Shown one piece after another: positions 1-4,942 of a DNA stretch of 4,942 bases. Numbering within the stretch: position 1 is the stretch's first letter; every line of letters begins with the position of its first letter. Under the pieces are notes generated by a model, which was not told the origin of the DNA, searched no databases, and saw only the letters and a list, made by a program, of their open reading frames with translations. Origin of the DNA: a virus (taxonomy: Duplodnaviria; Heunggongvirae; Uroviricota; Caudoviricetes); the IMG/VR virus record IMGVR_UViG_2675903289_000005, one strand, 5' to 3'. The translations under genes were made by a program, and so were the position numbers.

Positions 1-33
1 TAACAGGTGTCTGGAAATATAGGGGCAAATCCA
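1..33 (+). mobile_element. IS2-like (IS3 family) right terminal inverted repeat; the element body lies left of the window
   Basis: Window opens with TAACAGGTGTCTGGAAATATAGGGGCAAATCCA, which matches my recollection of the 3' terminus of IS2 (...GTCTGGAAATATAGGGGCAAATCCA). The exact reverse complement of its last 20 nt recurs at 4914-4933. Confidence 0.6.
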
Positions 34-137
34 GCGTTCATCAGCCCCCGCATTGCCGACAGGATCACAGACGGGGGGCGCAACTGGTTGTCGTTCAACT
101 GGCCCAGCTACCGTTCTTGTATCAGAGGTGTGGCTGC

Positions 138-1529
138 ATGACAACACCAGTCTGGCGTAATGATGACCTGGAAGGCGCTGTCATTGGCGCATTCTTTCTG
201 CGTGGGGCAGATCATGAAGTGATGGATATTCTGATCACACTACCGGCGGACATTTTTTCTGTACGAGCGTATCGGGATATCTACACAGGCATCTGCAGAC
301 AGGCCCGTGTTTCAGGAGTGATTGACCCCGTGCTGTTGTGTAATGAGATGCCGGAACTTGCCCCGGTGATTACTGATACCGGGCGTAAAACCTGGGTGAA
401 GTCTTCACTGGAGCACTATGTTGCAGCGTTGCGGCGCAATGCCGCACTGCGCGATGCAGAAAAAACACTGAATGAGGCGCTGCAGAAATTACGTGATGCG
501 CATACCTGTGAAGCAGCTGAAGATGCCCTGAAGGATGCGCAGAACATGATGGTCACACTGTCGACAGGAAAGGGCGTCATTCAGCCGGTACATATTGATG
601 ATGTGCTTCCGGAAGTGGTTGAGCGTGTTGAATGCCGGAATCAGGGGCTGGAGAAATCCAGGACGTTGATGACCGGTATTGATGAACTGGACGCAAAAAC
701 AGGCGGTATGGAGCCCGGAGACCTGGTATTCATTGCCGCCCGTCCTTCGATGGGGAAAACCGAACTTGCGCTGGACATCATCGACAAGGTGACTGAGCAG
801 GGGCATGGTGTGCTTCTGTTCACCATGGAGATGGCGAACATCCAGATTGGTGAACGTATGGTGTCTGCGGCTGGAGGGATGCCAGTATCACGCCTGAAAT
901 CTGTGGCTCACTTTGAAGATGAAGACTGGGCGCGTTTCTCACAAGGGGTGGGGCGGATGACCGGGCGCAATATCTGGATGGTGGACCAGGCGAACCTGAC
1001 CATTGATGAGATATGCGCAACAACGAAACACCATCTGATTAAACATCCGGAAACGGCGCTGGTGGTGGTTGATTATCTCGGGCTGATAAAAACCCGAACC
1101 ACGGGGCGTCATGACCTTGCCGTGGGTGAAATCTCAAAGGGGCTTAAAGGCCTGGCAAAATCCGGTGGTTTTCCGTTGATTGCGCTGAGCCAGCTCTCCC
1201 GCGGTGTGGAGTCCAGACCCAATAAACGTCCCATGAACTCAGACCTGAAAAATTCCGGAGAAATAGAGGCGGATGCAGACATCATTCTGATGCTTTACAG
1301 GGATGAAGTGTACAACCCGGATACACAGGCTACAGGCATAGCAGAAATTAATATCACGAAACAACGTAACGGTTCTCTGGGGACGATTTACCGGCGTTTT
1401 TATAACGGACATTTTCTGCCTGTGGACCAGGAAAGCGCACAGGTTCTTTCCACCCCAATGCGGCAGCCCCAGCCGCGCAGATACAGCAATACACGTACCG
1501 ACAGCAGTAAGATGGAGCGTTTCTTTTGA
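138..1529 (+). CDS. Phage replicative DNA helicase, DnaB family
   Basis: Long ORF (track 117-1529, TTG at 117). Preferred start is ATG 138, preceded by GAGGTG at 125-130. Walker A motif AARPSMGKTE, Walker B-like LVVVDYLGLI, and ALSQLSR motif as in DnaB-type helicases; the N-terminal segment resembles the DnaB N-terminal domain. The frame stays open upstream to the window edge, so the true N-terminus is not certain. Confidence 0.85.
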   Translation: MTTPVWRNDDLEGAVIGAFFLRGADHEVMDILITLPADIFSVRAYRDIYTGICRQARVSGVIDPVLLCNEMPELAPVITDTGRKTWVKSSLEHYVAALRRNAALRDAEKTLNEALQKLRDAHTCEAAEDALKDAQNMMVTLSTGKGVIQPVHIDDVLPEVVERVECRNQGLEKSRTLMTGIDELDAKTGGMEPGDLVFIAARPSMGKTELALDIIDKVTEQGHGVLLFTMEMANIQIGERMVSAAGGMPVSRLKSVAHFEDEDWARFSQGVGRMTGRNIWMVDQANLTIDEICATTKHHLIKHPETALVVVDYLGLIKTRTTGRHDLAVGEISKGLKGLAKSGGFPLIALSQLSRGVESRPNKRPMNSDLKNSGEIEADADIILMLYRDEVYNPDTQATGIAEINITKQRNGSLGTIYRRFYNGHFLPVDQESAQVLSTPMRQPQPRRYSNTRTDSSKMERFF

Positions 1530-1783
1530 ACAACCAGACAATGACTTTTACCTCTGAACAATTGCGTAAACACGCGCAGGAAATGTTGCGACAGGCGGAA
1601 CAACTGGAAAAAACAGGTGTAACAAAAGATGCCATTCGTCGGGATATGGTGCCAGCGCTCAGGGAACTGATGCAGGCGAAACATCGCGCACAAAAAGCGG
1701 TGGATGAGCTCGTTGATTGTGTGGCAGAGCTGGAAACCAAAGTTGGAAAGTTTGAAAAAATGGTGCAGGAGGTGCTGCGCTGA
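1526..1783 (+). CDS. Hypothetical small protein (about 80-85 aa, charged, probably helical)
   Basis: ORF whose TTG start (1526) overlaps the helicase stop (TTGA) and whose stop overlaps the rusA start (TGATG), suggesting translational coupling. GGAG at 1514-1517 lies 8 nt upstream of the TTG. Alternative ATG at 1541 has no obvious SD. No recognisable motif. Confidence 0.5.
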   Translation: MNNQTMTFTSEQLRKHAQEMLRQAEQLEKTGVTKDAIRRDMVPALRELMQAKHRAQKAVDELVDCVAELETKVGKFEKMVQEVLR

Positions 1784-2154
1784 TGCGCCATGAGTTTATT
1801 TTACCTTATCCGCCGACGGTGAATACTTACTGGCGACGTCGTGGCAGCACATATTTTGTATCAAAAGTTGGTGAGCGTTATCGCCGTGATGTGACGCTAA
1901 TTGTTCGCCAGCAGCGGCTGAAATTAAACCTGTCCGGAAGGCTGGCGATAAAGATTATTGCAGAGCCACCGGATAAGCGCCGTCGTGACCTGGACAATAT
2001 CCTGAAAGCACCACTGGATGCGCTGACGCATGCCGGACTACTCATAGACGACGAGCAGTTTGATGAAATCAATATTGTGCGCGGTCAGCTCGTTCCTGGT
2101 GGGCGACTGGGCGTGAAGATTTATGAAATCACAGGTGATAACGATGGCGCGTGA
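1783..2154 (+). CDS. rusA: RusA-family Holliday junction resolvase (crossover junction endodeoxyribonuclease)
   Basis: 123-aa product. Segments [31 protein letters not shown] and the N-terminal YPPTVNTYW closely resemble E. coli/DLP12 RusA as I recall it, including the conserved acidic residues (DLDN, DDE). Size and position in a nin-like region fit. Confidence 0.9.
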
Positions 2155-2530
2155 TATTCAGCAGGTTATGGAACGGTGGGGGGCTTGGGCTGCAAACACT
2201 CATGAAGATGTATCCTGGGCGTCGATCGCTGCTGGTTTTAAAGGGTTAATTCCGTCGAAAGTGAAATCACGCCCTCAGTGTTCTGATGATGATGCAATGA
2301 TAATTTGTGGCTGTATGGCCCGGTTGAACAAGAAAAATCAGGATTTGCACGATTTGCTGGTGGATTATTACGTAGGTGGAATGACTTTTATGAGTCTGGC
2401 ACGGAAACATGGGTGTTCGGATACCTGTATTGGCAAGCGCCTGCAGAAAGCGGAAGGGGTTATTGATGGCATGTTGATGATGCTTGATATCCGGCTGGAG
2501 ATGGACAGATACGTAGAACGAATTATGTAG
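2144..2530 (+). CDS. Q: Late-gene antitermination protein Q (short, DLP12 QuuD / phage-21-like type)
   Basis: Product [18 protein letters not shown]...[21 protein letters not shown]...[16 protein letters not shown]...LDIRLEMD matches the short Q antiterminator family from recollection. ATG 2144 is preceded by AGGTGA (2132-2137) and overlaps the rusA 3' end; an alternative in-frame ATG is at 2123. It sits directly upstream of a promoter-like region and lysis genes, as expected for Q. Confidence 0.8.
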
Positions 2531-2534
2531 GTGC

Positions 2535-3880: not shown

Positions 3881-3957
3881 CCACCACTAGCTCATCCGGA
3901 TAGAGCATCAACCTTCTAAGTTGACGGTGCGAGGTTCGAGTCCTCGGTGGTGGGCCA
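3881..3957 (+). tRNA. tRNA-Arg (anticodon TCT, reads AGA/AGG); encoded CCA
   Basis: Manual cloverleaf with all stems perfect: acceptor CCACCAC/GTGGTGG, D-stem GCTC/GAGC, anticodon stem TCAAC/GTTGA with loop CTTCTAA (TCT at 3915-3917), T-arm CGAGG-TTCGAGT-CCTCG, discriminator G plus CCA. Starts 1 nt after the previous tRNA. Confidence 0.85.
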
Positions 3958-3959
3958 GC

Positions 3960-4035
3960 GCCGACTTAGCTCAGCAGGCAGAGCAACTGACTTGTAATCA
4001 GTAGGTCACCAGTTCGATTCCGGTAGCCCGCTCCA
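3960..4035 (+). tRNA. tRNA-Thr-like (anticodon TGT) with noncanonical acceptor stem; possibly a pseudogene or variant
   Basis: D-stem GCTC/GAGC and anticodon stem ACTGA/TCAGT are perfect, loop CTTGTAA (TGT at 3993-3995), T-loop TTCGATT. The acceptor stem GCCGACT / AGCCCGC has two mispairs (C3.C70, A5.C68) and the T-stem has one A.C mispair. Ends ...T-CCA at 4035. Confidence 0.55.
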
Positions 4036-4649
4036 GCGAGATTTGAGACGAAGGTTGTTATTTGCACTGACACAATATTGTGTGGGAATGTCTGACTCCT
4101 TACCATCTCCTGTTCTGTGATGTTGTTTTGTTGCAGTTCCAGTGCTCTTTTTTCAGCACCAGAATGGTGCATTGTCGGTCAGGTTACGTAGTGAACCTCT
4201 GGCAGGGGACTGATGATTCATCATTCTGGTGTTGTAAATATCTCTTCGGACAACTTACAAAATATTCTAAGCAAACCCCGGGAACACACTCTTAACTGCC
4301 TTGGCTGGCGGTTTTTTGTACAGTGCTCGGTATGTGTGAGCTGGAAATCAGATTTTGCATGGACTGGAATCATGCTGTTATTTAGGGGCGAAGAACTGGC
4401 TTTTTCTTCCGCCTTCTCACCAGTAACGATTAGAAAAATAATGAAATGCCCCCCTCCGGGGAGGAGGACCGTAGAAAAAAGGACCCGCCAGCAAAAACAT
4501 TGGGGATGAACAGCTTTCGCTACTCAGATTGCTGGCGGGTAAAGTTCCTCATGAATTAAGAATGCTACGCGATCTTTTTTAATGGAAATGAAAATTATTG
4601 TCAATTAGTCGTGCGTGTTTTTTCATACAATATTGGTAAAGGTGATTCA

Positions 4650-4680
4650 GGCCATCAGAGTTTTGCTGATGGCCTTTTTT
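4650..4680 (+). terminator. Strong Rho-independent terminator about 35 nt upstream of the holin start
   Basis: Perfect 9-bp stem GGCCATCAG / CTGATGGCC (4650-4658 / 4666-4674) with a 7-nt loop, followed by a T6 run (4675-4680). Confidence 0.65.
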
Positions 4681-4715
4681 CTTTCCGATAGCACAGGTCT
4701 GTCGGGGGGCGGGAT

Positions 4716-4942
4716 ATGTATCAGATGGAAAAAATATCAACAGGCATTGCCTACGGCACCTCCGCCGGCAGTGCCGGCTACTGGTTTTTGCAGTGGTTGG
4801 ATCAGGTCAGTCCATCACAGTGGGCTGCGATTGGTGTGCTGGGAAGTCTGCTTCTGGGGCTTCTGACTTATCTGACGAATCTGTATTTCAAAATAAGAGA
4901 AGATAAGCGTAAGTGGATTTGCCCCTATATTTCTCGCCATCA
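4716..4942 (+). CDS. S: Class II holin (phage 21 S21 / DLP12 EssD-like pinholin); native sequence ends at about 4913, 3' end replaced by IS-like sequence; reading frame runs off the window
   Basis: Frame from ATG 4716 (not in the track because no stop occurs within the window) translates to [66 protein letters not shown], closely matching the S21/EssD holin as recalled. After codon 66 the translation becomes WICPYISRH, coinciding with the IS2-like terminus at 4914. G-rich SD-like stretch GGGGGGCGGG upstream. Confidence 0.75.
4914..4942 (-). mobile_element. IS2-like terminal inverted repeat (inverted orientation); the element body lies right of the window
   Basis: TGGATTTGCCCCTATATTTC (4914-4933) is the exact reverse complement of window positions 14-33 and of the recalled IS2 right end. 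The 9 nt beyond it (TCGCCATCA) diverge from the left-hand copy, so this may be a diverged or different IS3-family element. Confidence 0.5.

Follow-up and report, generated by a model that had tools for sequence, protein, structure and literature searches.

Inward-facing IS2 ends around a prophage segment of Shigella sonnei type: a real terminus on the left and a 20-nt stub on the right

Insertion sequences (IS) lying in inverted pairs can in principle mobilise or invert the DNA between them, and the locus described here raises the question of whether it is such a case. It is a stretch of 4,942 nucleotides (nt) from a tailed-phage record of IMG/VR (IMGVR_UViG_2675903289_000005), referred to below as the window, by which we mean the whole of that stretch, and both of its ends carry what appear to be termini of IS2 pointing inward. 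We found the window to be part of a decayed lambdoid prophage, of the Shigella sonnei type, with helicase, rusA, Q, ORF6N, transfer RNA (tRNA) and holin genes. Its left end is a real IS2 terminus; its right end is a solitary IS2 fragment that was likely created when a short-read draft was scaffolded and gap-filled across a repeat present in two copies.

The ends of the window are IS2 right ends

The initial annotation had described positions 14-33 and 4914-4933 as perfect reverse complements of one another that match the right inverted repeat (IRR) of IS2. A repeat search confirmed that the two arms form a perfect 20-nt inverted repeat (100% complementary), and by alignment each arm equals the outermost 20 nt of E. 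coli K-12 IS2A at its right end, for which our reference was the annotated mobile element at positions 61-1391 of locus L012. The 20-mer TGGATTTGCCCCTATATTTC has only two sites in the window when up to three mismatches are tolerated, the left arm (14-33, minus strand) and the right one, and it had no match across 200 dinucleotide shuffles. As to the origin of both 20-mers, the description of inward-facing IS2 right ends was therefore sound. The copies had also been said to part after 20 nt, and this is what the alignment gave: the left one stays IS2 to the edge of the window, whereas the right one leaves IS2.

A 20-nt stub at the site of a real IS2 insertion

At the right end, the first 66 codons of a class II (S21-type) holin gene (4716-4913, plus strand; PF04971), ending ...KIREDKRK, run into the 20 IS2 bases (4914-4933, minus strand, inverted relative to the left copy), and these run into TCGCCATCA (4934-4942, plus strand), which comparison with relatives identified as codons 2-4 of an rrrD-like endolysin gene. 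The matches in all relatives end exactly at 4913. In 19 uninterrupted relatives the site reads GCGTAAG|GCTGCGAGAGGTGAATAATG|TCGCCATCA, or in a longer form GCGTAAG|GCTGCGAGAGGTGAATAATG|TCGCCATCATTACGC, where the GCTGCGAGAGGTGAATAATG/TCGCCATCATTACGC stretch encodes the holin C-terminus AARGE* and overlaps the ATG of the endolysin gene. The window instead reads GCGTAAG|TGGATTTGCCCCTATATTTC|TCGCCATCA, with 20 IS2 bases standing for exactly 20 native bases and the register of the uninterrupted holin-endolysin allele kept. In the window the right copy has no continuation into the IS2 interior, the match being 20 nt only. The view that two IS copies bracket the window thus failed on the right, where there is a solo 20-nt fragment followed by endolysin sequence in register. 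That the match might be a solo repeat fragment had itself been foreseen, and this proved true of the right end within the window and untrue of the left, which is a true IS2 end.

A complete 1331-bp IS2 begins at exactly the first base of the stub in six closed-genome loci and two IMG/VR loci (L026 and L027); in the closed genomes it occupies 10190-11520 (L028-L030, L032 and L034) or 10190-11519 (L031). In all eight loci this element runs opposite to the left copy, with GTAAG on both sides. The initial annotation had pointed to GTAAG (4909-4913) and GCGTT (34-38) as flanks in which to look for target-site duplications; both are present, and locus comparison bore out GTAAG as the target duplicated around the complete right-hand IS2 in closed genomes, this motif being single-copy in the window. 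The loci with the holin IS2 share the holin alleles of the window at 4877 and 4904, and reading of the holin gene through into this IS2 gives a 91-residue S. sonnei protein that a protein search placed on 234 contigs. The holin IS2 and the left IS2 are 98.1% identical, in line with the suggestion that the two elements might not be identical.

Set against this real structure, the window lacks 1336 nt, made up of IS2 bases 21-1331, the second GTAAG and 20 native nt. This is the exact length of IS2 plus its duplication, displaced by 20 nt.

The stub junction is confined to one series of draft scaffolds

The 29-mer across the junction of stub and endolysin sequence (the junction 29-mer) was not found in 5,426 complete E. 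coli genomes, the GTDB species genomes, IMG/VR or the JGI metagenomes, and the stub junction was present in no closed-genome locus examined. The cluster of holin-fusion proteins does include variants that read across it, and the four variants that we traced led to five S. sonnei draft scaffolds from a single accession series (GCA_001249065.1, GCA_001249975.1, GCA_001253935.1, GCA_001250155.1 and GCA_001258775.1). The only sources of proteins reading across the stub junction are NCBI-derived (NCBI, nr and UniRef). Holin forms with IS2 read-through occur in Logan read assemblies too, but no Logan-derived protein crosses the stub junction.

The left IS2 is real and marks a rearrangement

Positions 1-33 (plus strand) are the last 33 nt of an IS2 copy, with the outer end of its IRR at base 33 and the remainder of the element lying to the left of the window. 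These bases are identical (33/33) to the IS2 at 6921-8251 of locus L004 and match K-12 IS2A at 32 of 33 positions, and window 1-2603 as a whole equals L004 8219-10821 at 100% identity. The full left element, whose body is outside the window, is known from loci identical to the window: it is 1331 bp long and encodes a 409-residue HTH_Tnp_1/rve transposase (gene at L004 7012-8240) that reads towards the helicase gene. The 33/33-identical copy is found in chromosome-length records of 4.8-5.0 Mb, which we took to be S. sonnei because they are shared with, or stand alongside, proteins that the sources name S. sonnei.

Homology to related E. coli prophages and to phage phiP27 starts exactly at base 34, and comparison with uninterrupted phages identified positions 34-141 (plus strand) as the 3' remnant of a phage dnaC-like helicase-loader gene truncated by the left IS2. 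The uninterrupted site, ...GAGTTGTGG|GCGTTCATCAG, lies within the 3' end of the dnaC-like gene in phiP27 (L036) and in E. coli VL40 (L037); the outer flank of the left IS2 in S. sonnei, ...CTTTAGTTGC, is unrelated to that gene. In the S. sonnei loci the left IS2 has no 5-bp target duplication, its flanks being GTTGC and GCGTT, so that GCGTT, proposed as a candidate duplication, is not repeated on the far side. Since the duplication is missing, this copy appears to have later joined in a deletion or recombination; the absence indicates such an event, not an element other than IS2. The left IS2 is thus both a real element and the breakpoint of a rearrangement in which the prophage lost its early region.

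In closed genomes the two ends lie in different prophages

An intact holin gene comes next after the rusA-Q-ORF6N-tRNA block (prophage A) in closed genomes, with endolysin, HNH and Terminase_4-type packaging genes beyond it, an order seen in 10/10 of the closed-genome loci shown. The interrupted holin gene has another context (prophage B), DUF1367-YbcO-DUF1133 ... holin::IS2-endolysin-VTT-Terminase_3. Both prophages are present in JBEAAA010000004.1, A at 1.49 Mb and B at 3.65 Mb, ~2.2 Mb apart. What they have in common is window 4170-4913 (plus strand, as delimited by allele comparison) plus the lysis genes, which makes of this stretch a 0.74-kb two-copy repeat. Within it the window carries A-type alleles at 4215 and 4218 and B-type alleles at 4324, 4877 and 4904; since A and B alleles are mixed, the window is an A/B mosaic over a repeat that short reads cannot phase. 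In the source strain, the left and right ends of the window probably had no physical link.

Two further elements were seen near these regions. An IS110-family element encoding a 398-residue DEDD transposase lies in a G-run just upstream of the holin start (window ~4709) in L027, L028 and L030, which represent prophage B. In closed genomes a third IS2, opposite in orientation to the left one and with the duplication GTGTC, sits within a copy of IS4 on the far side of the portal gene (L046 18980-20310, L043 18982-20311 and L045 18979-20308). Prophage A in the closed genomes with this third IS2 is truly flanked by inverted IS2 copies, ~11 kb apart. An inversion between the left IS2 and the third, IS4-embedded copy was considered and ruled out, as the third copy has its own GTGTC duplication.

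Signs of draft assembly in the window and in related scaffolds

The draft scaffolds that carry the stub junction look unreliable at this locus. L042 contains eight runs of N, and each one compared with a closed genome exceeds the true distance; in L040 a 1.4-kb IS110-family element has shrunk to 'N + 50 nt'; and in L038 pieces of two prophages are strung together and a 21-N gap stands beside an IS1 end that is missing exactly its first 10 nt. That IS1 end fits the default edge trimming of GapFiller, which is 10 nt (PMC3446322). Endolysin alleles 3' of the stub are A/B mosaics, in combinations that differ by scaffold, whereas the closed genomes have clean haplotypes. A pipeline of Velvet, SSPACE and GapFiller yielded 299 public S. 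sonnei assemblies and is called greedy by its authors, with false joins possible (PMC5320598), and reads with a mean length of 59 nt were used for at least some of the S. sonnei global collection (PMC7373316).

The window itself has similar marks. Positions 2734-2969 are 236 N where every relative has 59 nt, and positions 3089-3113 are 25 N where relatives have 0 nt; this second run falls within the ORF6N gene, and 1 nt is repeated at either edge of it. We observed that the N runs of the window act like over-estimated scaffold gaps, as in L042, and that the 59-nt stretch under the 236-N run falls in an Rfam hit to the small RNA (sRNA) sRNA-Xcc1 (L004 11108-11191). In addition, 164 nt that are present in every relative (L004 10822-10985) are gone at window 2603/2604. 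The loss is bounded by the 10-nt direct repeat GATTGGAACC, and in L004 the lost segment holds an Rfam hit to C4 antisense RNA (10891-10974) and the 3' part of a hit to isrK (10789-10865). The deletion junction was not found in the E. coli genomes, in IMG/VR or in any of the fetched loci. This loss is probably a false gap closure, and a real deletion between the repeats may be the alternative; the default minimum overlap of GapFiller, 10 nt, fits the loss at GATTGGAACC and does not fit the IS2 stub.

Four proteins from other S. sonnei drafts (P0002, P0037, P0089 and P0132) are holins with local duplications or frame slips in the same C-terminal region, and altered holin C-termini of this kind point to frequent misassembly at this repeat boundary. 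Taken as a class, the artefacts of drafts of the Velvet, SSPACE and GapFiller type resemble what we see here in their mis-sized N gaps, IS end fragments, edges trimmed by 10 nt, a join over a 10-nt repeat, and alleles of paralogous copies mixed into mosaics.

Origin of the apparent bracket

Among the possibilities named in the initial annotation (a composite-transposon-like unit, an IS-mediated inversion or deletion, or two independent hits that inactivated a prophage), the last fits best. We propose two independent copy-out/paste-in IS2 insertions into lambdoid prophage remnants. One IS2 entered the dnaC-like gene and was rearranged later by deletion or recombination; the other entered the holin gene as a simple insertion that duplicated GTAAG. 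Short-read draft assembly would then have merged two paralogous lysis regions, one intact and one IS2-bearing, and left the 20-nt stub. That the stub came about by scaffolding or gap filling over the two-copy repeat is, in our judgement, a likely explanation that we favour with fair confidence, and the link between prophages A and B probably has the same source, the mechanism being deduced from the artefacts described above.

Several observations weigh against this explanation. The same junction is found in five assemblies plus the window, as a clade-specific real deletion would also give. That the five scaffolds derive from the Velvet/SSPACE/GapFiller pipeline is a reading of their accession style and artefact signatures. 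The draft artefacts also differ from our case in one respect: none of the assembler steps considered gives the exact join, an in-register 20-nt IS2 stub without N, and there is no 10-nt overlap at the junction. Finally, the IMG/VR draft contig L024 joins the left IS2 and rusA block to holin::IS2, with B-type alleles from 45 nt into the repeat, and suggests that A and B may be physically linked in some strains. Three specific routes to the stub were tried and rejected. A De Bruijn-graph false join was ruled out by the sides sharing ≤2 nt, closure by GapFiller over a 10-nt overlap does not fit, and an origin in a reference-mapping consensus or a gap shift under optimal alignment would need an aligner to favour 17 mismatches per 20 positions, which it would not do.

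The best surviving alternative, which we nevertheless consider unlikely, is that the stub is an in vivo scar, left by a 1336-bp deletion after the IS2 insertion and inherited in an S. sonnei sublineage; such a deletion would take IS2 bases 21-1331, the second GTAAG and 20 nt of holin/endolysin sequence. The occurrence of an identical junction in five public assemblies plus the window is in its favour, as is the start of the stub at exactly the authentic insertion site. However, the length lost is exactly that of IS2 plus duplication and yet is offset by 20 nt, the microhomology at the junction is ≤2 nt (TC), and no known IS3-family pathway explains such an event. Every carrier is a draft scaffold of one series with other demonstrable collapses, and the alleles 3' of the stub are A/B mosaics that differ among these carriers, whereas the junction is in none of the closed-genome loci examined and no Logan-derived protein crosses it. 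If true, the scar would be a holin-endolysin fusion following IS2 loss offset by 20 nt from precise excision, and one of the rare recorded traces of an IS3-family element lost almost precisely in a natural population.

Far less credible is that the 4.9-kb block works as a composite-transposon-like or invertible unit between two complete inverted IS2 copies. The IS2 right ends do point inward, and L024 does carry the left IS2 and holin::IS2 on one contig; the link in that draft, however, passes through the 0.74-kb two-copy repeat, and in closed genomes the copies are in separate prophages. The outer flanks are unlike (GTTGC on the left, GTAAG on the right), with no shared outer duplication. Moreover, GTAAG is intact and unsplit on both sides of the right IS2, as expected of a simple insertion with no later recombination with the left copy, which speaks equally against the IS-mediated inversion between copies that had been suggested. 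The block was never found at a second site, the rusA block always being in the same context.

Least tenable of all, and in our view barely conceivable despite the divergence after 20 nt and the absence of the junction 29-mer from large collections, is a right 20-mer that matches IS2 by chance, was planted artificially or belongs to another IS with the same terminal 20 nt, since the shuffles give an expectation of 0, a random plant would miss the exact base at which the natural full IS2 starts in the same holin allele, and the 9 nt that follow are native endolysin sequence, which also ruled out an IS inserted in IS2.

Other genes and RNAs in the window

Downstream of the dnaC-like remnant, an open reading frame (ORF) at 138-1529 (plus strand) encodes a 463-residue replicative DNA helicase (DnaB_C), as supported by the gene call and Pfam match in identical loci. 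In some closed genomes this gene carries a further IS3-family element (272-residue and 100-residue ORFs) at window ~370 (367-370), which lies at about 7320-8585 in L003, L008 and L001 and is absent from the window. The helicase gene is followed, also on the plus strand, by genes for a RusA Holliday-junction resolvase (1783-2154, 123 residues; PF05866) and a Q-type antiterminator (2144-2530, 128 residues; PF06530), and then by an ORF6N-domain, antirepressor-like gene (3024-3613), recognised by a domain match and by its relatives, which the 25-N run breaks. The region 3' of Q (window 2530-3613; L004 10776-11792) corresponds to a P1-type immI-like module consisting of c4-a1b1 targets, isrK, C4 antisense RNA, an sRNA-Xcc1-like hit and then the ORF6N antirepressor-like gene; of the RNA part of this module the window holds only remnants.

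Three tRNA genes were called at 3803-4035 (plus strand). The first (3803-3879) is a Met tRNA with a CAT anticodon according to ARAGORN, and the RefSeq annotation of its homologue in E. coli VL40 is tRNA-Ile. The third (3960-4035) is a Thr/Gly hybrid, the body of a tRNA-Thr(TGT) joined to the final 9 nt of the adjoining tRNA-Gly; relatives keep both the Thr and the Gly genes, and 78 nt are gone in the window. By eye the hybrid has two mismatches in the acceptor stem, and its Rfam tRNA score falls from 69.8 to 56.7 bits. Its junction was not found in GTDB genomes or in the fetched loci, and for an ORF spanning the hybrid tRNA and for P0037, neither is on record. The non-coding interval between the tRNA genes and the holin gene contains a 31-nt inverted repeat whose arms are 77% complementary and a 12-nt hairpin with perfect pairing, ACCCGCCAGCAA/TTGCTGGCGGGT (4150-4238 and 4483-4540), which are possibly terminator-like.

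Relation to known systems and meaning

In its biology the IS2 at this locus is no different from IS2 elsewhere in Shigella. Over 1331 bp, identity to K-12 IS2A is 97.6% for the left copy and 99.2% for the holin copy; both have the terminal repeats and the two-ORF HTH_Tnp_1/rve transposase, and the holin copy has the 5-bp duplication, the right copy in the window amounting to 20 nt only. An analogy had also been drawn to the IS-activated rusA alleles of E. coli K-12, rus-1 with IS2 and rus-2 with IS10, in which the IS reportedly lies immediately upstream of rusA. The locus resembles them in having an IS2 upstream of a prophage rusA gene and in the same direction, but here the distance is 1.75 kb and a complete helicase gene and an 85-codon ORF intervene. 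Judged by position in the sequence, with IS2 ending at base 33 and rusA starting at 1783 beyond an intact helicase gene, activation of that kind would not be expected. Composite transposons of the Tn10/Tn5 type likewise have two inverted IS ends around a cargo; here, by contrast, the outer flanks share no duplication, the right IS carries one of its own, there is no second site, and the ends come from separate prophages.

An apparent IS bracket that ends in a solo terminus is a lesson in the data quality of scaffolded short-read drafts: composite transposons, inversions, deletions, hybrid tRNAs or lost sRNA genes read from such windows need closed genomes or reads. For the organism itself, IS2 is one of five IS that have expanded in all Shigella species, and the decay of Shigella genomes is well known to include prophage genes broken by IS2 (PMC7373316). 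The spread of IS2 and the disruption of genes in Shigella are thus already known, and nothing here departs from the known kinds; the two IS2 ends of the window define no mobile unit and are an ordinary outcome of IS2 expansion in Shigella.

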